Shown here piece by piece: positions 2,640 to 18,974 of a DNA stretch of 18,974 nucleotides (within the stretch, counting starts at the first letter, position 1; each line of letters begins with the position of its first letter). The DNA lies in the IMG/VR virus record IMGVR_UViG_3300036876_000145, positions 83,489 to 102,462 of that record. One strand, 5' to 3'. Position numbers and translations under genes: made by a program. This stretch comes from a virus (Duplodnaviria > Heunggongvirae > Uroviricota > Caudoviricetes). A model generated the notes under the pieces. That model was given only the letters and a program-made list of their open reading frames with translations. It did not search any database and was not told where the DNA came from.

Positions 2640-2718
2640 ATTCCGATGGCGTGAGCGGCGAAACCACTTGCCCTACAAGCAAGTATCATCGGGGGTTCGA
2701 GTCCCTCTCGGAATACCA
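2640..2718 (+). tRNA. tRNA-Val(UAC)-like with aberrant D-arm and C33
   Basis: Perfect 7-bp acceptor (ATTCCGA/TCGGAAT), A73 and an encoded CCA. T-arm is GGGGG-TTCGAGT-CCCTC. Anticodon stem is CTTGC/GCAAG with loop CCTACAA, giving anticodon TAC. No convincing 4-bp D-stem could be found in 2649-2665. Confidence 0.45.
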
Positions 2719-2729
2719 AATTTTAATGT

Positions 2730-2804
2730 GTGGGTGTCGTCCAATGGGAGGACTTTCGGTTTGCACCCGGAGAATGCGAGTTCGAGTCTCGTCACTCTAC
2801 ACCA
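2730..2804 (+). tRNA. tRNA-Ala(UGC)
   Basis: Acceptor GTGGGTG has the G3:U70 Ala identity pair. D-stem is GTCC/GGAC. Anticodon stem is TTCGG/CCGGA with loop TTTGCAC. The T-loop is TTCGAGT and CCA is encoded. There are two mismatches at the base of the acceptor and one extra nt before the discriminator. Confidence 0.55.
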
Positions 2805-2896
2805 AATGTGCCGTCCGCGACGGTGATAGATACCAGAAAGCTCTTCGGAGCGCTGGAATGGGGATCAGCCCCTTAGTCATCGCGGCTAAATTTATA

Positions 2897-2970
2897 AGCG
2901 GATTAGCCAAGTGGTTAAAGGCATCTGCCTGCAAAGCAGACAAGCACGGGTTCGAATCCCGTATCCGCTT
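2897..2970 (+). tRNA. tRNA-Cys(GCA)
   Basis: Perfect 7-bp acceptor (AGCGGAT/ATCCGCT) with a U73 discriminator, as expected for Cys. Anticodon stem is TCTGC/GCAGA with loop CTGCAAA. T-arm is ACGGG-TTCGAAT-CCCGT. CCA is not encoded. Confidence 0.75.
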
Positions 2971-2979
2971 CCCAAATTT

Positions 2980-3056
2980 GGGGGTATAGTTCCAACTGGT
3001 AGAACAGCGGCTTGTCGCGCCGATGGTTGCGGGTTCGAATCCCGTTACCCCCGCCA
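2980..3056 (+). tRNA. tRNA-Asp(GUC) variant (anticodon loop TTGTCGC with G37)
   Basis: Acceptor is GGGGGTA/TACCCCC with G73 and encoded CCA. D-stem is GTTC/GAAC. The anticodon stem has 4 bp plus a G:A mismatch, and the anticodon is GTC. T-arm is GCGGG-TTCGAAT-CCCGT. Confidence 0.55.
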
Positions 3057-3060
3057 GTTT

Positions 3061-3138
3061 GGTGTGTTGGAGGAGTCTGGTCTTCCTCGCTTCCCTGTCA
3101 CGGAAGATATCACACGGGTTCAAATCCCGTACACACCG
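3061..3138 (+). tRNA. tRNA-Asp(GUC)
   Basis: Acceptor is GGTGTGT/ACACACC with G73. Anticodon stem is CTTCC/GGAAG with the canonical Asp loop CTGTCAC. T-arm is ACGGG-TTCAAAT-CCCGT. CCA is not encoded. Confidence 0.75.
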
Positions 3139-3147
3139 CTTTCGTGA

Positions 3148-3179
3148 CTTCCTGAGTATTAAGTAGAGTACTCAGGAAG
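3148..3179 (+). promoter_or_regulatory. 11-bp perfect inverted repeat (CTTCCTGAGTA ... TACTCAGGAAG) sequestering the SD of the GIY-YIG gene
   Basis: The 3' arm contains the AGGAAGG Shine-Dalgarno, and the ATG at 3184 lies 4 nt after the stem. The loop is TTAAGTAGAG. No T-tract follows, so this is not an intrinsic terminator. Confidence 0.5.
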
Positions 3180-3183
3180 GTTC

Positions 3184-3834
3184 ATGATGAAATACACAGT
3201 CTACAAAACTGTGAATCTGGTCAACGGCAAGTTCTACATCGGTGTCCACAAGACGGACAATCCGAATGATGACTACCTTGGTTCTGGGAAGTTCATCAAA
3301 CGAGCCGTTGCGAAGTACGGAGAGCAGAATTTTCGCAAGGAAATTTTGGCTGTCTTTGAAATCCAGAGAGAAGCTTTCGATCTCGAAAAGAAACTCGTGG
3401 TTGAAGCGAAAGTTGATCCACTGTGTTACAACCTGAAAGCTGGCGGTGAAGGTGGGTTTGACTGGATCAATCGTAAGGGATTGAATAACTCGAACGAGAA
3501 CGGCGTGAAAGGAAATCGGGTTACAATTGGAAAAATAAAAACTGACCCAAAGGTAAAGAAGCGATTTACTGACAGGATCAATCGAGTTAGACAGTATCGT
3601 ACTCAAGACTACAAAGCTCGAATTCCTTCGATGTTACAAAAGTGGACAGGACAGCATCATACCGCCGAGACAAAGGCTAGACTTAGCGAAACGCATAAAG
3701 GTAAGAGCAACGGACGCTTTGGAAAACAGTGGATGTATCATCTCGAATCGCAGAGATCAAAGCCTGTCTCACCGGACGAGATCAATAGCCACATTGAACA
3801 AGGTTGGTTGATTGGTCGCCGGATGAAATTTTAG
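3184..3834 (+). CDS. GIY-YIG homing endonuclease (Seg/I-TevI-like) with a C-terminal NUMOD3-like repeat
   Basis: The N-terminus YTVYKTVNLVNGKFYIGV carries the GIY..YIG motif with downstream R and E residues. The C-terminal TGQHHTAETKARLSETHKGKSNGRFGKQW resembles NUMOD3 DNA-binding repeats. The gene sits inside the tRNA array. Confidence 0.85.
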   Translation: MMKYTVYKTVNLVNGKFYIGVHKTDNPNDDYLGSGKFIKRAVAKYGEQNFRKEILAVFEIQREAFDLEKKLVVEAKVDPLCYNLKAGGEGGFDWINRKGLNNSNENGVKGNRVTIGKIKTDPKVKKRFTDRINRVRQYRTQDYKARIPSMLQKWTGQHHTAETKARLSETHKGKSNGRFGKQWMYHLESQRSKPVSPDEINSHIEQGWLIGRRMKF

Positions 3835-3841
3835 GAGAGAC

Positions 3842-4054
3842 GTGAAGATTCTCTACGATGAACAGCGGCATCTGATCACGGTGCCGTACTCGAAAGAGAA
3901 TCTACATGAAGCAGCGCGGCAGTTGGGTATTAAGCGTTGCTGGTTTCACAAAGACCACTACGACGTTCCTAAGAGAATGATGTCTCGGATGTCGGAGACG
4001 GTAGCAGAAAAAGTTTCGCCGCGTGAAGTTTTGAAGATCGTGCGCGGCAAGTAA
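3842..4054 (+). CDS. DUF4031-like small phage protein (70 aa, HYDVP motif)
   Basis: GTG start with a GGAGAGA SD. The sequence MKILYDEQRHLITVPYSKENLHEAARQLGIKRCWFHKDHYDVPKRMMSR matches my recollection of the DUF4031 pattern (..A..lGl.r.Wfq...HYDl). The family assignment is from memory, not from a search. Confidence 0.55.
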   Translation: MKILYDEQRHLITVPYSKENLHEAARQLGIKRCWFHKDHYDVPKRMMSRMSETVAEKVSPREVLKIVRGK

Positions 4055-4058
4055 GTTT

Positions 4059-4135
4059 GGATGGATAGCCAAGTAGGAAAGGCGCTCCCCTGCAAAGGGA
4101 GTCATGCGGGGGTTCAATTCCCTCTCCATCCTCCA
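4059..4135 (+). tRNA. tRNA-Cys(GCA), second divergent copy
   Basis: Perfect acceptor GGATGGA/TCCATCC with U73 and encoded CCA. Anticodon stem is CTCCC/GGGAG with loop CTGCAAA. T-arm is GGGGG-TTCAATT-CCCTC. Confidence 0.75.
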
Positions 4136-4530
4136 AATGTACCAGTTCGGGACAACCGCTGGCAGGAAGTTTCTGCGGGAGGGAAAGTTCGGGGCTTCAT
4201 AGAGTACCGTGCGGGGTAACTCCCCGGCGACGGCGCAAGCCGTTGACAATTAGAGCTACAGAGACGAGTCACAGAAGGTGTGCTTGGAAGCGCGTAAGAT
4301 TCACGTCGGTAGTGTTGATGTGAAATGCCCGACCAAGTCCCCTGATGTGGGTGAAACGAGCAATCTTCACGGGAAGCAAGTGCAAATAGGCTGACAGGAA
4401 CTACTCGTTCCGTTATGAATCAGCGGGTAGCATGCTTGAGCGTTGGAGTAATTCAACGCCTAGACGAATGGTTGTCGCCGCGCAAGCGGAACAGAACCCC
4501 GGCTAATAGGACTGGTACAAGTTTATGAGT
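4136..4530 (+). other. about 395-nt noncoding, GC-rich, hairpin-dense region (candidate structured RNA or long leader) between tRNA-Cys and the HNH gene
   Basis: There is no plausible ORF on either strand apart from a spurious minus-strand ORF overlapping the tRNA. Local stems are present, for example GGGGTAACTCCCC and GCGCAAGC. Confidence 0.25.
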
Positions 4531-4542
4531 TTTTGAACTATG

Positions 4543-4568
4543 AGCGACCTATATTAGAGAGGTCGCTC
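4543..4568 (+). promoter_or_regulatory. 8-bp inverted repeat (GAGCGACC ... GGTCGCTC) placing the HNH SD/start at the loop/3'-arm junction
   Basis: The loop is TATATTAGAG. The SD GAGAGG (4557-4562) straddles the loop and 3' arm. The GTG at 4569 immediately follows the stem. Confidence 0.45.
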
Positions 4569-5006
4569 GTGACAAGTCAAAAAGAAGTTCAAAGACAATT
4601 AGGAATGAGTCGAGGAACCGCCAACTACAGATTGGCGCGTCTTTTACTCTTCAAATACATGCAGCAAGCTGGGGCGGACAACTGTTTTCGCTGCGGTCTA
4701 AAGCTTGAAACGGTTGAAGATTTTAGTATTGAGCATAAAAAACCGTGGTTGTACGCATCCCCAGATTTATATTGGGATTTGGAAAATATTGCTTTTTCGC
4801 ATCGCGCATGTAATTCGGGCGCAGCTAGACAGATCAATAAGACCAAAATGAGTCTTAGATCAGTAGGACCGGAAGGAACAAGTTGGTGTACGGAACATAA
4901 ACAGTTTCTTTCAGTCGATGAATTTCAAAAAAATTCCGCTATTTGGAACGGCTTACAAAGGCAATGCAAAGAATGCCGACAAAAGCGAAATAAAAAGCGG
5001 GCTTAG
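4569..5006 (+). CDS. HNH homing endonuclease (HNH_3-like)
   Basis: CFRCG...EHKKPW...HRACN is an HNH motif. The preferred start is GTG 4569, which has GAGAGG 6 nt upstream; the track's longest ORF starts at TTG 4533. The last 10 nt overlap the 5' end of tRNA-Gly. Confidence 0.8.
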   Translation: MTSQKEVQRQLGMSRGTANYRLARLLLFKYMQQAGADNCFRCGLKLETVEDFSIEHKKPWLYASPDLYWDLENIAFSHRACNSGAARQINKTKMSLRSVGPEGTSWCTEHKQFLSVDEFQKNSAIWNGLQRQCKECRQKRNKKRA

Positions 5007-5073
5007 CTCACGCTGGTAGAGCGCTGGTCTTCCAAACCGGAGGTAACGGGATCGTCGCCCGTAGTCCGCTCCA
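4997..5073 (+). tRNA. tRNA-Gly(UCC) with an unusual T-loop (ATCGTCG)
   Basis: Acceptor is GCGGGCT/AGTCCGC (one G:U pair) with U73 and encoded CCA. D-stem is GCTC/GAGC. Anticodon stem is CTGGT/ACCGG with loop CTTCCAA. Confidence 0.65.
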
Positions 5074-5084
5074 AGTTTAGATAT

Positions 5085-5160
5085 GGCGCACTCTGCTAAC
5101 GGCTAGGCAACCACGTTCTCAGCGTGTGAAATGTGGGTTCAAATCCCGCGTGCGCTACCA
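5085..5160 (+). tRNA. tRNA-Glu(CUC)
   Basis: Acceptor is GGCGCAC/GTGCGCT with A73 and encoded CCA. D-stem is TGCT/GGCA. Anticodon stem is CCACG/CGTGT (4 bp) with loop TTCTCAG. T-arm is GTGGG-TTCAAAT-CCCGC. Confidence 0.6.
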
Positions 5161-5167
5161 GATTTTG

Positions 5168-5224
5168 GCTGACCATGTTCGGCAAGGTCAGCGGTTGGGG
5201 GACATGGCTCAGTACAACCGCTGA
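5168..5224 (+). other. pair of mutually exclusive hairpins (GCTGACC/GGTCAGC 7 bp; TCAGCGGTTG/CAACCGCTGA 10 bp) in a tRNA spacer
   Basis: The 3' arm of hairpin 1 (5186-5192) overlaps the 5' arm of hairpin 2 (5189-5198). The segment is not tRNA-like. Confidence 0.4.
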
Positions 5225-5231
5225 TAACCGT

Positions 5232-5307
5232 GGGGCTATGGCGCAGTTGGGAGCGCGTAATCATGGCATGATTAAGGCCGTCGGTTCGAACCCGACTAGC
5301 TCCACCA
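5232..5307 (+). tRNA. tRNA-Ala(GGC)
   Basis: Acceptor GGGGCTA/TAGCTCC has G3:U70, with A73 and encoded CCA. D-stem is GCGC/GCGC. Anticodon stem is TAATC/GATTA with loop ATGGCAT. T-arm is GTCGG-TTCGAAC-CCGAC. Confidence 0.75.
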
Positions 5308-5313
5308 GATTTT

Positions 5314-5388
5314 GCGGAAGTAGTTCAGCGGTAGAATATTTCCTTGCCAAGGAAGGGGTCGCGGGTTCAAATCCCGCCTTCCGCTCCA
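5314..5388 (+). tRNA. tRNA-Gly(GCC)
   Basis: Acceptor is GCGGAAG/CTTCCGC with U73 and encoded CCA. Anticodon stem is TTTCC/GGAAG with loop TTGCCAA. T-arm is GCGGG-TTCAAAT-CCCGC. Confidence 0.8.
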
Positions 5389-5399
5389 AGTTTAGAAGT

Positions 5400-5461
5400 T
5401 CATGGATGCCTAGATGTCGGTGGCTAACCGAAAGGTCGCGGGTTCAATGTCCGTTCCATGT
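5400..5461 (+). pseudogene. 62-nt tRNA-like element lacking a D-arm (pseudo-tRNA or armless tRNA)
   Basis: There is a 6-bp acceptor-like closing stem (CATGGA/TCCATG), an anticodon-like hairpin GTCGG-TGGCTAA-CCGAA, and a T-arm-like GCGGG-TTCAATG-TCCGT. Only 9 nt lie between the acceptor and the anticodon stem. There is no spacer before the next tRNA. Confidence 0.35.
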
Positions 5462-5537
5462 GGGGCTATAGCGCAGTTGGGAGCGCGTCTCGTTCGCAAC
5501 GAGAAGGTCGTGAGTTCGAATCTCACTAGCTCCACCA
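5462..5537 (+). tRNA. tRNA-Ala(CGC)
   Basis: Acceptor GGGGCTA/TAGCTCC has G3:U70, with A73 and encoded CCA. Anticodon stem is TCTCG/CGAGA with loop TTCGCAA. T-arm is GTGAG-TTCGAAT-CTCAC. Confidence 0.75.
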
Positions 5538-5544
5538 AGTTATT

Positions 5545-5617
5545 GCGGGTGTAGTTCAATGGTAGAATATTCGGTTCCCAACCGAAAGATTTGTCGGTTC
5601 GAGTCCGACCATCCGCT
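5545..5617 (+). tRNA. tRNA-Gly(CCC)
   Basis: Acceptor is GCGGGTG/CATCCGC with U73; CCA is not encoded. Anticodon stem is TTCGG/CCGAA with loop TTCCCAA. T-arm is GTCGG-TTCGAGT-CCGAC. Confidence 0.75.
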
Positions 5618-5624
5618 CCGTTTT

Positions 5625-5768
5625 ATGAGAGAGTGTCCAAAGTGCGGTAAGAAAGAACAATGGGAAATCGGTTGGATTTCTACTACCAATGAATGGCGCT
5701 GGCATTGTCTGTCTTGTGATATTCGTTTTAATGATGATGGCGTAATTTACACACCAGAAAAAGTTTAG
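5625..5768 (+). CDS. 47-aa zinc-ribbon protein (CPKCG ... CLSCD)
   Basis: ATG at 5625 is in frame with the track ORF 5559-5768, whose upstream part overlaps tRNA-Gly and is rejected. Two CxxC pairs are present: MRECPKCGKKEQWEIGWISTTNEWRWHCLSCDIRFNDDGVIYTPEKV. The SD is weak. Confidence 0.4.
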   Translation: MRECPKCGKKEQWEIGWISTTNEWRWHCLSCDIRFNDDGVIYTPEKV

Positions 5769-5791
5769 GGCCGTGGGACTGCATTGGGGTG

Positions 5792-5819
5792 GTTCGAATC
5801 TCACTAGCTCCACCAAGTT
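5792..5819 (+). repeat. 28-bp exact direct repeat of the 3' end of tRNA-Ala(CGC) (5514-5541), giving a 3' tRNA fragment with no 5' half
   Basis: GTTCGAATCTCACTAGCTCCACCAAGTT is identical at both sites. The upstream sequence at the second site cannot form a T-stem or an acceptor. Confidence 0.6.
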
Positions 5820-5822
5820 TAC

Positions 5823-5926
5823 GTAGGCTTCCGAGGGATACCTCGGTGACAGTTGTTCTGAGGTCATCTCTTCATGAGGGGCTGAACAGGGAACGGCAGC
5901 GTGGGGAAACCCACAAGCCTACACCA
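5823..5926 (+). ncRNA. 104-nt structured RNA of unknown class, closed by the 8-bp stem GTAGGCTT/AAGCCTAC and ending in ACCA
   Basis: The internal hairpins are perfect: CCGAGG-GATA-CCTCGG (6 bp, 4-nt loop) and GTGGG-GAAA-CCCAC (GNRA tetraloop). Its position in the array and its A-CCA end are tRNA-like, but there is no 7-nt T-loop. Confidence 0.35.
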
Positions 5927-5929
5927 TTT

Positions 5930-6005
5930 GCGCTGTTAGATTAGCGGTAAAATCGTCACCATGACAAGGTGAAAATCGGGGGTTCGATTCCCTCACGGCG
6001 CACCA
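5930..6005 (+). tRNA. tRNA-Val(GAC)
   Basis: Acceptor is GCGCTGT/ACGGCGC with A73 and encoded CCA. D-stem is GATT/AATC. Anticodon stem is TCACC/GGTGA with loop ATGACAA. T-arm is GGGGG-TTCGATT-CCCTC. Confidence 0.75.
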
Positions 6006-6017
6006 GTTTTTAAATAT

Positions 6018-6095
6018 GGCGTTGTCTTCTAAATGGTCTAGGAAAACTGACTTTCAATCAGTGGAATGCCGGTTCAACTCCGGTCAACGCTACCA
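6018..6095 (+). tRNA. tRNA-Glu(UUC)
   Basis: Acceptor is GGCGTTG/CAACGCT with A73 and encoded CCA. Anticodon stem is ACTGA/TCAGT with loop CTTTCAA. T-arm is GCCGG-TTCAACT-CCGGT. Confidence 0.75.
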
Positions 6096-6102
6096 GAATT
6101 GA

Positions 6103-6177
6103 GAGGGAGTAGCTCAGCGGTAGAGCAGAATATTGCCAATATTCAGGTCGCGGGTTCAACTCCCGTCTCCCTCTCCA
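6103..6177 (+). tRNA. tRNA-Gly(GCC), second copy
   Basis: Acceptor is GAGGGAG/CTCCCTC with U73 and encoded CCA. D-stem is GCTC/GAGC. Anticodon stem is GAATA/TATTC with loop TTGCCAA. T-arm is GCGGG-TTCAACT-CCCGT. Confidence 0.75.
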
Positions 6178-6372
6178 ACATTTATGCGAATCTATTCAAA
6201 AGTTTATTTTCGCTTTATGGTGTGTTATGAGAAAACTAAAGAGACTAAGCAAGGTCAAACTCGTGAAGGAAATGTCCAGGGAGAGGGTGCCAGTCCCCGC
6301 GACCCGCAAGATTGAAAATAAGAAAAAGAAATTTTTGCGTTACTTAGAAACACATTGGCAGGAAGATGAATT

Positions 6373-6448
6373 GGGGGTATAGCTCAGCTGGGAGAGCGCA
6401 TCGTTTGCAACGATGAGGTCGTCGGTTCGATCCCGTCTACCTCCACCA
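6373..6448 (+). tRNA. tRNA-Ala(UGC), bacterial-type (5' end GGGGGTATAGCTCAGCTGGGAGAGCGC)
   Basis: Acceptor GGGGGTA/TACCTCC has G3:U70, with A73 and encoded CCA. Anticodon stem is CATCG/CGATG with loop TTTGCAA. The T-loop is TTCGATC. Confidence 0.8.
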
Positions 6449-7073: not shown

Positions 7074-7766
7074 ATGCCAAAAATAGTTTTTATTTCAGAT
7101 ACTCATGGGTTACACGGTCAGATGCAGGTGCCCGAAGGAGATATTTTAGTTCATGCTGGAGATATGACTAATGTAGGGCGTATAAATGAAGTTGCTGCCT
7201 TGGGCGTATGGCTCCGTGAAATGGAAAAACGTTTTAAATTTATCGTGATCGTCGCGGGTAATCACGATTGGCTTTTTCAGAAAAATAGAGCCTTGGCTGA
7301 AAGCCTGATAAATCAAGGTACAATGGGAGAAGCTACGGGTAAAATCATCTATTTACAAGATAGTGGAGTTACAATTGATGGCTTAAAAATACATGGAAGT
7401 CCTCAAACTCCTTGGTTTTTTGATTGGGCCTTTAATGTACGCCGAGGAGAACTTAAGCCCTATTGGGATAAGATCCCTGAAGGTCTGGACATATTAATTA
7501 CTCACGGTCCTCCCAGTGGTATACTGGATCAAGCAGACCCTCATTTAGGCAGTGAACATGTAGGCTGTGAAGAACTTATGGAAGCGGTGGAGCGCACCAA
7601 ACCAAAAATCCATGTATTCGGACATATACATGGCGGGTATGGTAAAATGGAACATGTGAATACCACATTTATCAATGCTTCAATTTGCGATGAACGGTAC
7701 AAACCGATTAACGCCCCTTGGGTTATTGATATGGAGCCCCGTGATACACATGGCGAAGAAAAATAA
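7074..7766 (+). CDS. calcineurin-like metallophosphoesterase (binuclear metal phosphatase/phosphodiesterase)
   Basis: The MPP signature motifs are present: FISDTHG, HAGDMTN, VAGNHD, ITHGPP and GHIHGGYG. Confidence 0.85.
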   Translation: MPKIVFISDTHGLHGQMQVPEGDILVHAGDMTNVGRINEVAALGVWLREMEKRFKFIVIVAGNHDWLFQKNRALAESLINQGTMGEATGKIIYLQDSGVTIDGLKIHGSPQTPWFFDWAFNVRRGELKPYWDKIPEGLDILITHGPPSGILDQADPHLGSEHVGCEELMEAVERTKPKIHVFGHIHGGYGKMEHVNTTFINASICDERYKPINAPWVIDMEPRDTHGEEK

Positions 7767-7938
7767 GCTACCTTCGGCGGCTTTATTGTTAAAAACTTTG
7801 GCTGGTGTAATGGCTATGGGATTACCTTACAAAAAAGGAATCTGTATATCTTGTGGGGTAACAGAAAGTAAAAAACATCACACTGACTGCTACTATCTAG
7901 ACGCTTTGAATTTGATAGTGAAATATTATAAGCCATGA
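7750..7938 (+). CDS. hypothetical small protein (63 aa, Cys/His-rich C-terminus), start overlapping the phosphoesterase stop
   Basis: ATG at 7750 lies within the phosphoesterase 3' end, suggesting translational coupling. It is the internal start of track ORF 7675-7938, whose upstream part overlaps the phosphoesterase CDS and is rejected. Confidence 0.4.
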   Translation: MAKKNKLPSAALLLKTLAGVMAMGLPYKKGICISCGVTESKKHHTDCYYLDALNLIVKYYKP

Positions 7939-7956
7939 ACGGTAGTTGAGGAGCGC

Positions 7957-7978
7957 AATCCCAGACTTTTAGTCTGGG
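7957..7978 (+). repeat. hairpin repeat copy 1: AATCCCAGACT-ttt-AGTCTGGG (8-bp perfect stem)
   Basis: A near-identical copy lies at 8180-8201. No T-tract follows. Confidence 0.6.
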
Positions 7979-8014
7979 CTAGCGAATGCCTTTGACTTTA
8001 GAAAGGAGGACACA

Positions 8015-8170
8015 ATGATTCAGTATCAACTCAAGTTGAGAATGTGCAAGTCGCAAGAACAACAATGCGAACAGTTTCTTTATCACCTGTCCTCTGTTTG
8101 GAACTGGGCGGTGAGGAAGATAGAACTCAGCGCGGCAGGATGTGCCGTCGAGGGTTACGCTTATGTGTAG
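8015..8170 (+). pseudogene. TnpB (IS200/IS605 OrfB)-like N-terminal fragment, 51 codons, with a strong SD
   Basis: MIQYQLKLRMCKSQEQQCEQFLYHLSSVWNWAV fits my recollection of the TnpB N-terminal pattern (Y.YKL.P...Q...L......R.VWNWAL). The consensus is recalled from memory, not taken from an alignment. AAAGGAGG lies 5 nt upstream of the ATG. The ORF stops after 51 codons, between the two identical hairpins. Confidence 0.4.
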
Positions 8171-8438
8171 CCGTTCAGGAATCCCAGACTTCAAGTCTGG
8201 GAGCATCAATAACGACCCTAAACTCGTAGCACTGGCTATACTTGTTCGAAAATACGGCACCAAAATATCTGGGGGTGCATACGAAATTTTCATTACCAGT
8301 GAAGATTTTGCAGATTTTTCTTCATTCGGTGAATTGGTTGAGACGAAGGATGAAGAACGCAAAAGACTCAGTTTGCGTTATTATCCTAATCCTACAATTG
8401 AAGGTGAAGGTGGACTTATTGAATCGACCGGGGGTTAA
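8142..8438 (+). CDS. hypothetical protein (track ORF, 98 aa); the start is doubtful
   Basis: The only ATG lies inside the TnpB-like fragment. The acidic C-terminal half has a plausible codon structure. Confidence 0.2.
   Translation: MPSRVTLMCSRSGIPDFKSGSINNDPKLVALAILVRKYGTKISGGAYEIFITSEDFADFSSFGELVETKDEERKRLSLRYYPNPTIEGEGGLIESTGG
8180..8201 (+). repeat. hairpin repeat copy 2: AATCCCAGACT-tca-AGTCTGGG
   Basis: Direct repeat of the 7957-7978 hairpin. Together they bracket the TnpB-like fragment, in an arrangement like the left and right end hairpins of an IS200/IS605 element. Confidence 0.6.
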
Positions 8439-8453
8439 ACATTCAGGTGAAAA

Positions 8454-9023
8454 ATGATTGATCCGTATGATTTGACTAAGCCTTGGGATCAACGCCGTCT
8501 TCAGGAATGGTTCTTATTCGGGATTTGTGTAGCTGGGAAGGGTGCAGGTCAAACCGCTAGGAAAATTGAAGCTTTACTGGACGACATGCGAATTAAGACT
8601 CGTACTGAATTATTCCCCCCATTCGTTCTTGTGAGTCGATCTATTAAAAGCGGAAAACTGGGATACTTTCTACGTAAGCACAAATTAGGTCAATACAAAC
8701 GAATCAATAAAGCGATGCGCGGCATGATCAAAATTGATCCCCAGACTGTTACATTGGAAGAACTTGAGCAGATCCCTGGATTAGGACCGAAGACAGCGCG
8801 TATGCTGTTACTATATACTCGTCCCGACCAGGAAATGATTCCATTGGATACTCATATCTTGCGCTGGCTTCGAAATAATGGGTATAACGCCCCTAAAACT
8901 ACTCCACCAGCGGGAAAGAAATATAGAGAATTGGAGTTGGCTTTTATCGCTGAAGGCAAAAAACGCGGATTATCCCCAAAAGATTGGGATACATTAGTTT
9001 GGCAGCAAGGCGCTAGTAAGTAA
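8454..9023 (+). CDS. HhH-GPD superfamily DNA glycosylase (Ogg2/AGOG-like 8-oxoguanine glycosylase fold)
   Basis: A helix-hairpin-helix motif (LEELEQIPGLGPKTARMLLLY) is followed by the catalytic Asp context PLDTHILRWL. A protein of about 190 aa is typical of small Ogg-type enzymes. Confidence 0.7.
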   Translation: MIDPYDLTKPWDQRRLQEWFLFGICVAGKGAGQTARKIEALLDDMRIKTRTELFPPFVLVSRSIKSGKLGYFLRKHKLGQYKRINKAMRGMIKIDPQTVTLEELEQIPGLGPKTARMLLLYTRPDQEMIPLDTHILRWLRNNGYNAPKTTPPAGKKYRELELAFIAEGKKRGLSPKDWDTLVWQQGASK

Positions 9024-16226: not shown

Positions 16227-18974
16227 TGTCAATTCGCATTTACTTTCTCGCTTTAATTATTGCACTAACATCTTTGGCTGGTGCGCAAAATATTACCGGT
16301 AACAGTTTGACACTCTCGCCTACTTTGACCGTAGGTACACTTCCATCAGCAGCAACCAATAAGGGGCGCACGTTTTCTATCAGTGACGGATTAAATTCTA
16401 CCGACTGTACTGTTGGCGGAGGAACTAACCATGTATGGTGCTGGTCAAATGGAACTATCTACGCAGTGCCGTTTGGGTCGGCAGCAGGGGGCGTCACTTC
16501 CATTAATACCGTAGCCGGGGCGTTTACATTCAGCGGACCTGGGGTAACTTGTACAAGCACGGCTTGCACATTTTCCGGTACAGGAGTATCTTCTGTTTCG
16601 AACAGCGATGGAACTCTGACGATATCTCCCAACACAGGAGCAGTCGCAGTTTCGCTTGCTTTAAGTCATGCTAACACATGGACAAATCAGACGATTGACG
16701 GGGTGACCCCAACCACTTTTGGCTTCGTCGATCCCACGTCTAGTATTCAGACGCAGTTGAATGCCAAGGCTAACTCCAGCGTGACTACTCTTTCTTCGTT
16801 GATTGCGGCTGCTGGGGGTACGTTTGGGACGTGTGCGTTTGTGAATACTTGTGGTTCGGGAGGAACGTATAGCGCGGTTACTTCTCCGATTACGGCATCT
16901 AGCAGCACGCTCCAGTTTTCCGCGTCTCTGCTGAACTACGGTGGCAACGGAAATGGGACTTCAGACAACTCCACGGCCATGACTTCAGCGTGCGCCGCGA
17001 ACTCAGAAGTCTGGTTGCCTGCTGGGGCGTATGCGTTCACATCGAACTATGCCGTGTCGTGCGGGCTTCACTTCGGCGCTGGGGCAACGCTTGTAGCCCC
17101 GACTGGAGTAACGGTTACAGTCAATGGCAAGATCGACGCTCCCACTGTGCCAATATTTACTGTAGCTGGAACCGGGAAGTTTCTTATCGGTCCAGGAACT
17201 CCTGTCGATTACGCGGAGTGGTTTGGAGCGAAGGGCGATAACTCAACCGACGATACAATTCCTATCACATCCTGCGCCAACAATTTTACCAAATCAGGGT
17301 TGTGCCAGCTTCTTGGGAAGTCCTATAAAACAACAAACGTCATCATTCTTAGCACCAGCTATACAGGGCTGATAGGAGTAGATTCGGGGCAGACACAAGG
17401 GCCACAGCCCACTGGTTCGGGATACTCCCAGATCAATAACAATAGCGCTACATCGGACATCATCGACATAAGCGGGAGTGGGATTTTGCCTTACGGTGTA
17501 ACGGTGAAAAACCTTACCTTGGCCAAATCCGTTGCAGCCACAAACGCAGGTGCGAATGGGCTATATCTGGGAACTGGGTTCTGGCATTTTGTTGATAACA
17601 TCAATATTTGGGACGCGCCCAATGGAGTGACTGTCGGTGCCTCTGCTACCGTGATAGTGACGAACGTCAACGTCAACTGGTCCTCTCTCTGTTGCTCAGT
17701 GCCCGTCGTAGGGTTCAACTTGAACGGACCTTCGAATGTCTTCTCTAATATCTTCGCAGAGAGGGAAGGTTCCAGTGCGAGTGCCACCGGTTTTGCAATG
17801 GCAGCGGGAGGTACCGGACTGAGCGACGTATGGGTGAATAACGCTCAGGCTGATTTCGTCGGGACAGGGTTCTTGATCGACGTAACTGCGTGTGTGGCCG
17901 CTGATCCTAGCAACGAATGTGCAACGGACATTCACATTACCAATCCTATTATCAATGTGAGCAATACAGGGTTTAGTTTTGTGAACTTGAACTCGGCCAC
18001 TGGTCCCCAAGGGCCGTCAGTCGATATCGTCGGGGGTTCGTTCCTGGAAAGCTCCGGTAACGCGTTTACCTTCACTAACTCCACCACAGGGTACAACATC
18101 GAGCACTTTAACAGTCAGGCAGGTGGTGTTAACACTTTCATCAATCGGACCATGCCGTCTGCGTTCTTCTCCATACCAGTATGTAGCGCGAGCTATGAAG
18201 GGTCGTATGAATCGTTTAATGATTCCGCGACGAATACACAAGGAGCAACGATCACGGGCAGCGGAACGAATCATGTGCTCGGGTACTGCAACGGAACGAA
18301 CTGGGTAGTAGCCTCGGGGAGCGGCAGTGGGAGCAGCGGACTATCTGGCATGACAGCTACACAGATCCCGATTGCTGCCTCATCCTCGACCGTAACTAGT
18401 TCCGTACCAGCACCCACAGGCACAATTGTAGGGACAACCGATACCCAAACTCTCACGAATAAGACATTGGACGGTGTATCCCCAACAACATTTGGATATG
18501 TTGACCCTACTTCCAGTATCCAGACGCAGTTGAACGCCAAGCAAGGGACGCTCACAGGCACCGGGTTGGCTCGCAACACCGGAGCATCCTCGGAACTGAG
18601 CGGCGACTGCGCCACCAGCGGATCAAACGCTATCGTCTGTACGAAGACGAACGGGACGGCTTTCGGCACTGGAGCTACGGCTACCATCGCCAACTACGCC
18701 CTGCTGACCGGAGCGACCTTCAGTGGTGCGATCTCCGCCGCCGGGATCACGAACTCATCCGTATCCAGCGCCGGTTGTGCGACGTTCAGTTCTGGTGGAG
18801 TTCTGACCAGCACAGGAACGGCTTGCGGTAGCGGATCTGGTGGCGATACGATCACATCACCCAACAGCACGCTTTCCGTGGGTGGAACTTCTGCGGCAAC
18901 AACGCTCGATCTCAACCTTGGCCACGCGAACACCTGGACGGCGACTCAGACTTTTCCGAATGGGTCGATCACGT
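16226..18974 (+). CDS. tailspike or depolymerase-like protein, 3' partial; it has a pectate-lyase-type beta-helix motif and an N-terminal hydrophobic segment
   Basis: The ATG overlaps the previous stop (ATAATG). The ORF is open to the window end. [17 protein letters not shown] matches the pectate_lyase_3/tailspike N-cap motif. The N-terminus [21 protein letters not shown] is signal-peptide-like. The module HANTWT..QT...[18 protein letters not shown] is repeated internally. GC content is higher than in fibres 1 and 2. Confidence 0.8.

Follow-up and report, generated by a model that had tools for sequence, protein, structure and literature searches.

An internally deleted IS200/IS605-family element with IS608-type ends between the first and second codons of a phage gene, and a putative replacement start codon in its right end

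Two copies of one hairpin stand about 220 bp apart, on either side of a 51-codon ORF, in a stretch of 18 974 nt from a tailed phage (Caudoviricetes; positions 83 489-102 462 of IMG/VR record IMGVR_UViG_3300036876_000145; this whole stretch is called the window below). What is this unit, where does it end, and what has it done to the phage gene next to it? The original prediction took it for a PATE-like miniature derivative of an IS200/IS605 element. A pattern scan of the window located AATCCCAGACT-nnn-AGTCTGGG at 7957-7978 and 8180-8201 on the + strand, while 200 dinucleotide-preserving shuffles of the window gave no match. As had been predicted, both hairpins have the same perfect 8-bp stem (CCCAGACT/AGTCTGGG); the loops are TTT (left) and TCA (right). 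As single-stranded DNA, both clearly exceeded shuffled sequence in folding stability (z -3.5 and -3.7), and the stem of the right one shows compensatory changes among relatives of the element.

The hairpins had been thought to delimit an IS200/IS605 element; the family assignment held, but the hairpins are subterminal rather than the outer limits of the element. Both lie on the same (+) strand, 20 nt (left) and 8 nt (right) inside the element ends. In every readable related copy TGAA is followed by ∼20 nt ending in GCGCAAT and then by the hairpin; on the right, unrelated DNA begins at once after ...GGAAT-hairpin-AGCATCAA, in at least 10 contexts. We found no terminal inverted repeats at the element ends and no target-site duplication in the flanks. 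The element and its end sequences are as follows.

7940-8209 (+), whole mini-element of 270 bp (left end LE, collapsed tnpB, right end RE), delimited by comparing copies across different flanks
7956-7959 (+), left guide tetranucleotide CAAT, directly 5′ of the hairpin foot
7960-7978 (+), left subterminal hairpin CCCAGACT-TTT-AGTCTGGG, from the pattern scan and single-stranded DNA fold
8179-8182 (+), right guide tetranucleotide GAAT, the same as GR of IS608 and pairing with TCAA by the published code
8183-8201 (+), right subterminal hairpin CCCAGACT-TCA-AGTCTGGG, from the pattern scan and single-stranded DNA fold
8206-8209 (+), right cleavage tetranucleotide TCAA, with which the element ends (from flank divergence), the same as CR of IS608

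It is known that in IS608 the left cleavage occurs 3′ of a tetranucleotide located 19 nt 5′ of the left hairpin foot, that the right cleavage site TCAA is a few nt 3′ of the right hairpin, and that each hairpin has its guide in the 4 nt on its 5′ side, where GL AAAG pairs with TTAC and GR GAAT with TCAA; the code also includes A+16:T-3 and A+17:T-4 (PMC3201880, PMC5934647). With this element of Helicobacter pylori (IS605 group) the window element has in common subterminal top-strand hairpins, a predicted left cleavage just after a tetranucleotide that precedes the left hairpin foot by about 19-20 nt, a terminal TCAA that follows the right hairpin by a few nt, an identical right guide GAAT and the lack of target duplication. 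The left guides differ while obeying the same pairing code (AAAG to TTAC in IS608, CAAT to TGAA here). Thus, under the IS608 code, the guide CAAT predicts the target T-G-A-A, which is the left flank observed; this is a consistency at the level of sequence. Also, the single difference between GL and GR (C/G) mirrors the single difference between CL and CR (G/C). The element is inserted 3′ of TGAA, and every related element with a readable left flank likewise has TGAA before its left end. We had considered TGAA as the target of one relative (L005) as well and set it aside: from its guide CAAG the code predicts TGAC, a tetranucleotide located 17 nt from the hairpin foot and probably the target of that element. 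A further likeness to IS608 is seen in the hairpin CCCCAGGCTTTAGCTATGGGG of a relative from Thiobaca trueperi (L059). On the other hand, IS608 has the target TTAC and bulged hairpins, whereas the window element has the target TGAA and perfect hairpins, no tnpA, and a tnpB reduced to 51 codons.

The ORF between the hairpins runs from an ATG at 8015 to 8170. A consensus Shine-Dalgarno (SD) sequence had been predicted to precede it and does so.

8000-8009 (+), SD region of tnpB, AGAAAGGAGG, read directly and conserved in full-length relatives
8015-8170 (+), collapsed tnpB of 51 codons, in which codons 1-40 continue in frame with the final 11 codons and the native stop

The proposed TnpB N-terminal signature was confirmed, as residues 1-40 of the window peptide are identical in 39 positions to the N-terminus of a TnpB protein of 325+ aa encoded in a viral contig (L012). 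The length of 51 codons was also correct; still, the ORF is not an N-terminal stump with early termination but the product of an in-frame internal deletion that left 40 N-terminal and 11 C-terminal codons with the native stop. Codon-level comparison puts the deletion junction within AGC GC/G GCA, at about 8132-8135 (the slash marks the junction); the window peptide reads ...KIELSA/AGCAVEGYAYV* where the relative L058 has ...AAAGCAVEGYVYA*, and the C-terminal AGCAVEGYAYV matches AGCAVEGYVYA of L058. In a Pfam search the 51-aa peptide alone matched HTH_OrfB_IS605 below threshold (E 0.026, 14.4 bits, cut-off 21); the L012 protein and the full-length relatives exceed the Pfam thresholds for both OrfB_IS605 and Cas12f1-like_TNB. 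The RuvC and zinc-finger TNB domains are missing from the window TnpB, in which residues 1-40 and the last 11 are left. As tnpB has collapsed to 40 + 11 codons, it can make no nuclease.

Relatives of the element were recovered by a full HMMER scan and a DNA scan for the hairpin. The HMMER scan of 1.8 billion representative proteins, with the first 37 residues as a query, returned 47 proteins at E ≤ 1e-3, and the exact-pattern hairpin scan of viral contigs returned 14 related loci; one candidate of the hairpin scan (L016) was rejected as a chance palindrome. Other searches were poor in matches: blastn of 7600-8600 against INPHARED phages gave none, tblastn of the 51-aa peptide gave chance-level matches only, and a word-indexed protein search with this peptide gave a single protein (P0001, leading to locus L001) and no full-length TnpB.

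Further copies of the hairpin and an intact tnpA or tnpB partner, which the original prediction had called for, do exist. The same hairpins and flanks bound full-length tnpB genes in about 40 viral contigs (38 loci) and in bacterial MAGs and genomes (Acidobacteriaceae, Thiobaca, Kiritimatiellia, Nitrospirae and others); the lengths of the encoded proteins are, e.g. 350 aa (L004), 354 aa (L009) and 365 aa (P0026). The prediction had staked itself on two points, and on both it stands: the peptide belongs with the TnpB family and the hairpin is not confined to its two sites in the window. In one viral contig (L036) a 131-aa Y1_Tnp protein (E 5.8e-44) is encoded directly upstream of tnpB, and two other relatives (L035 and L068) appear, judging from C-terminal sequence, to have a Y1 transposase as well. 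Thus, autonomous members of the clade exist. The TnpA-bearing relatives have a hairpin of a different, bulged type, and a TnpA accompanied by the exact hairpin subtype of the window was not found among the relatives. The lineage of the window element usually carries tnpB alone in phages.

No second copy of the element and no tnpA (Y1/HUH transposase) were found in the window or in the 20-33 kb contigs of the same phage, and no full-length tnpB in the 33 kb available; the element is identical and occupies the same site in six assemblies. As there is no tnpA in the window copy, we characterized the segment 7940-8209, by its sequence, as a non-autonomous, internally deleted copy of an IS200/IS605-family element with IS608-type ends. 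Its cis sites for TnpA all appear to be intact. The description as PATE-like is adequate for a deletion derivative, while a classical PATE, free of ORFs and multicopy, would be a wrong name for an element with a coding remnant and one copy in ∼33 kb. With PATEs it shares short length, both transposon ends and the lack of a functional transposase or nuclease. PATEs as described contain no protein-coding genes and are usually multicopy, whereas this element keeps an in-frame tnpB remnant with SD, start and stop, and is single-copy and fixed at one site; it resembles a PATE without being a strict one.

Solo right ends (GAAT-hairpin-AGCATCAA), with neither left end nor tnpB, were seen in L002/L003/L010, L006/L008/L011/L014/L015 and L013, where their neighbours are phage genes (terminase-like, GIY-YIG and others); they represent additional products of decay in this family. 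One MAG of an uncultured Acidobacteriaceae bacterium (CAVQNY01) contains three copies of a TnpB element that are 78-80% identical (L058, L062 and L071), which hints that Acidobacteria may be hosts of these phages.

An omega-RNA-like structure, which the original prediction had proposed to look for, may survive in part: three 3′-terminal hairpins are present, the stems upstream of them are gone, and Rfam gave no match at the element, in the window or in full-length relatives. RNAfold showed three hairpins in the last 84 nt of the window element and of 15 relatives, with the same layout. For the first of the three, hairpin B, we observed compensatory changes at 5 of 7 pairs in 18 relatives.

8132-8148 (+), conserved hairpin B (GCGGCA-GGATG-TGCCGT) of the omega-RNA/right-end region, from RNAfold
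8153-8172 (+), hairpin C, from RNAfold, holding the right-end ATG (8163-8165) together with the stop of the mini-ORF (8168-8170)

RNAalifold, applied to a 200-nt right-end alignment, did not return the right-end hairpin and hairpin C because the register shifts between sub-clades; these two were assessed by per-sequence folds and direct reading. Thus, the window copy keeps the last three hairpins of the presumed omega-RNA region, while covarying stems farther upstream (around the zinc-finger TGTGG, for instance) have been deleted. The full-length relatives are similar to IS1341-type TnpB-only elements with a 3′ omega/reRNA (as for ISDra2 TnpB): they likewise consist of tnpB and structured, covarying hairpins reaching to the right end. 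In TnpB-only elements an omega-RNA scaffold is expected, with the flank as a guide, and the hairpin layout of the relatives fits this. The window copy differs from such elements in having lost the nuclease along with the 5′ portion of the scaffold, and its predicted TAM is TGAA as opposed to TTGAT for ISDra2 TnpB.

The site of insertion is defined by two features on the left side of the element.

7750-7938 (+), upstream phage gene of 62 aa from the ORF list, with no Pfam family
7935-7939 (+), ATGAA, combining the target TGAA at 7936-7939 (the expected TAM) and the orphaned native start ATG at 7935-7937

The upstream gene was called as a gene of 62/65 aa in six assemblies, and its TGA stop (7936-7938) overlaps the orphaned ATG. 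The flanks of the element are ...AAGCC ATGAA on the 5′ side and TAACGACCC... on the 3′ side; joined, they read ATG AAT AAC GAC... and encode MNNDPKLVALAILVRKYG... (MNNDPKLV...). The reconstructed MNNDPKLVALAILVRKYG aligns with the N-termini of homologues, MRGNPQVNAVALLVRKFG in L017 and MQRANPQLSALALLVQRFG in L019. These two contigs (332 and 170 kb) come from jumbo phages and are syntenic with the window phage, with the gene order metallophosphoesterase, small Zn-ribbon gene, interrupted gene, HhH protein; they have no element, and no TGAA, at that point. Given the match of the reconstructed N-terminus to both homologues, the element lies between the start codon (ATG 7935) and the second codon (8210) of a small conserved phage gene, as read from the sequence. 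Similar cases were seen in bacteria. In the Acidobacteriaceae MAG locus L058 the insertion follows the start codon, and the reconstructed product, an MFS sugar transporter, matches Pfam from profile position 2; in L059 (T. trueperi) the reconstructed ORF encodes a metallophosphoesterase with a Pfam match beginning at profile position 1. At the nucleotide level, the empty site TGAATAACGACCCTAAACT had no match in viral contigs, and a degenerate version had 51 matches in metagenome contigs, none of them encoding the downstream protein. A candidate third insertion allele (P0050) turned out to be the same element in an indel-ridden short contig.

How, then, could the interrupted gene still be translated? 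The right end contains a purine-rich motif and an ATG followed by an open frame that leads out of the element.

8150-8153 (+), GAGG, putative SD for the right-end start codon, conserved in aligned relatives
8163-8438 (+), fusion ORF of 91 aa, made of 15 right-end residues (MCSRSGIPDFKSGSI) and the native gene from codon 2

The putative SD is followed by the ATG at 8163, which overlaps the stop of the mini-ORF (TAG 8168-8170); its frame crosses the hairpin and TCAA and enters the gene, the native part of which starts at 8210 (NNDPKLV...). In six independent assemblies the 91-aa gene was predicted by gene callers to begin at 8163. A GTG at 8142 is in frame as well and could be the real start rather than the ATG at 8163. 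In a close homologue (P0049) a different leader encoded by the right end precedes the same body. An SD and an ATG in frame with the terminus, as in the window right end, are not described for IS608 in PMC3201880 and PMC5934647. Neither a right-end start codon nor translational coupling to a host gene is described in the TnpB/IS605 literature covered by our limited search, and a built-in replacement start codon may be new.

The same arrangement is seen across the clade: an ATG stands 1-11 nt before the tnpB stop, with a purine-rich GAGG or GGAG 5-12 nt upstream of it in aligned relatives. In most distinct right ends this ATG stands 44, 47, 50, 53 or 56 nt from the terminal base; the distance is 2 mod 3 in 22 out of 29 (binomial p 3e-6, a generous value since related sequences were counted), and it stays 2 mod 3 in most right ends though the length of the hairpin varies from 18 to 22 nt. 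The frame of the right-end ATG is the longest open frame past the right end in 24 of 32 loci (binomial p 1.7e-6, with independence overstated as the loci are related). A fused ORF of at least 55 aa was found in 23 of the 32, including four with spacing other than 2 mod 3; eight loci have no long fused ORF. As a control, we used 29 distinct cyanobacterial tnpB loci that are distantly related (∼30% identity), and none of these had such an ORF. Without selection on the reading frame, it is hard to account for five different spacings that are all in frame.

A start codon and the preceding stop within one hairpin are the usual arrangement for translational coupling. We propose that the right end's own SD (GAGG 8150) and ATG 8163 keep the interrupted gene expressed: the strong SD of the mini-ORF would load ribosomes whose passage would unfold hairpin C and permit re-initiation at 8163, the host protein would gain a leader of 15 residues, and the element would be retained as it has become the translation start of the gene. 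To move again, the element would depend on a cognate TnpA, or on TnpB with a full omega RNA, provided in trans; none is visible here. A relay from the orphaned host ATG through the left end into tnpB was also considered; it fits L027 and was rejected for the window, where this frame stops after 4 codons. Taken together, an IS608-like deletion derivative that splits the start of a gene, with a right end that restores the translation start, is in our judgment a probable explanation of the locus. We lean only slightly towards the wider proposal, drawn from sequence comparison, that the clade may have evolved a translation initiation region inside the right end, where the target TGAA coincides with NTG-AA gene starts and translation of the host gene is re-initiated.

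The same site in a near-identical phage gives a second view of the decay. In a 57.6-kb contig (L134), with flanks 99.0-99.6% identical to those of the window, a different mini-element occupies the same right junction (L134 3634-4060 compared with window 7920-8215). It is 182 bp long, belongs to the lineage of L047 and has about 83% identity where alignable; its tnpB consists of 6 + 17 codons, a 23-codon ORF in frame that ends at the native stop overlapping the right-end ATG. Thus, two independent mini-elements have been found at this site with tnpB in frame in both. TnpB-driven homing would, by analogy with TnpB-only elements, explain different element alleles at one site. At another locus (L001, 9950-10659) the left and right ends are of the window type and the body of tnpB has been replaced by an ORF of 166 aa for an Endonuclease_7 (HNH-type) protein; a TnpB N-terminal stump of 42 codons lies before this ORF, which continues in frame into the last 18 TnpB residues and ends at the native tnpB stop. 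P0007 combines a TnpB N-terminus of ∼140 aa with an HNH_5-like insert after it. This tnpB seems to have been invaded by HNH genes more than once, and free-standing HNH/Endonuclease VII homing genes have kin in these two cases (Endonuclease_7 in the LE/RE frame of L001, the HNH insert in P0007), while the window copy has no endonuclease. What is conserved is translation into the right end up to the native stop, and not the peptide.

The history of the insertion in the window phage is more complex than one clean insertion, since a 66-aa Zn-ribbon-like gene located beside the insertion in L134, L017 and L019 is missing from the window. In L134 this gene starts at the very ATGAA that abuts the left end of the window element; the window thus has the element, and has lost the neighbouring gene, between two ATGAA pentamers. 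Candidate histories are two insertions followed by recombination, cassette exchange by homing, and an adjacent deletion.

Several other readings of the locus have to be weighed. The element could be an active PATE, moved around the phage or host genome by a TnpA encoded elsewhere, as its cleavage sites, guides and hairpins on both sides are intact and match those of full-length copies, and TnpA-bearing relatives are present in viral contigs. Still, a single copy in the window and the 20-33 kb contigs, identical and at the same site in six assemblies, the different, bulged hairpins of the TnpA-bearing relatives and the absence of tnpA from any contig of this phage make active mobilization unlikely. 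A role at the RNA level would be to donate a guide: the right-end remnant would act as an omega RNA for a TnpB located elsewhere in the phage, cutting insertion-free competitors (homing or exclusion). PATEs encoding omega RNAs used in trans have been discussed (10.1101/2023.03.14.532601), and here the three 3′-terminal hairpins and the would-be guide flank are intact; however, covarying upstream stems such as the one around TGTGG are deleted, no tnpB is present in the available 33 kb and no Rfam family covers the region, so that we give this role a rather low probability.

The 51-aa peptide itself could have been domesticated as a small protein, e.g. a DNA-binding remnant of the TnpB N-terminus. 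Its strong SD, the intact ORF identical in six assemblies and the weak HTH_OrfB_IS605 match are in line with that, but in L134 a 23-aa ORF (6 + 17 codons) of a different element lineage stands at the same place. As the decay events keep the frame and not the peptide, a function for the 51-aa product is very doubtful. Finally, short GC-rich hairpins between genes could be ordinary terminators, regulatory stem-loops or a chance repeat with no link to a transposon. We consider this refuted, with practically no probability left to it: neither hairpin has a T-tract or was called as a terminator, none of the 200 shuffles reproduced the repeat, and the same sequences elsewhere bound tnpB genes whose products have TnpB domains.

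The preferred reading, in which an IS608-like deletion derivative has split the start of a gene and its right end has restored it, gives the window element two kinds of interest. As an object, it is a clean, dissected case of IS200/IS605 decay in a large phage; decay of an IS inside a phage genome was rightly predicted, and as such it is ordinary and routine. The part worth following up is the replacement-start feature of the right end, seen across the clade. If true, the in-frame right-end start codon and the target overlapping a start codon would explain the persistence of TnpB elements where non-coding DNA is nearly absent: an element could sit between the first and second codons of a phage or bacterial gene without inactivating it, and decayed copies like that in the window would persist as the start of the gene. 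The RNA guide of TnpB would then always be the 5′ coding sequence of the interrupted gene, and a guide on the first codons of a gene would bear on phage-phage competition and gene-drive-like homing. This would also be a new way for a transposon to spare its host gene, a translational counterpart to splicing of IStrons. Like IStrons (IS605/IS607 with a group I intron) and the intron and intein homing elements of phages, the window element is selfish, located in a gene and apparently sparing its function, which would permit persistence in gene-dense genomes; unlike them, it would act through a new translation start at the 5′ end of the gene and not through RNA or protein splicing. No intron-like RNA was detected by Rfam at the window element or in full-length relatives.

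Some observations concern the rest of the window, which comes from a phage genome that looks large. An N6/N4 DNA methyltransferase gene with an HTH insert (898-2124, +) lies upstream of an array of 16 tRNA genes (2640-6448). Inside this array we found a full-length bacterial class A RNase P RNA at 4139-4522 (+) (Rfam RF00010, 169 bits, E 2.5e-53, model 1-367), which is present in the related contig L134 as well; a limited search of the jumbo-phage literature found no mention of RNase P RNA. The array region is dense in selfish elements: two free-standing homing-endonuclease-like genes are located at 3184-3834 and 4533-5006 (+), one of the GIY-YIG/NUMOD3 type (SegE-like, weak) and the other an HNH endonuclease gene directly after the RNase P RNA. 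Farther downstream, an 87-nt direct repeat (family D5) with 77% identity occupies 16682-16768 and 18455-18541, the copies being 1.8 kb apart.
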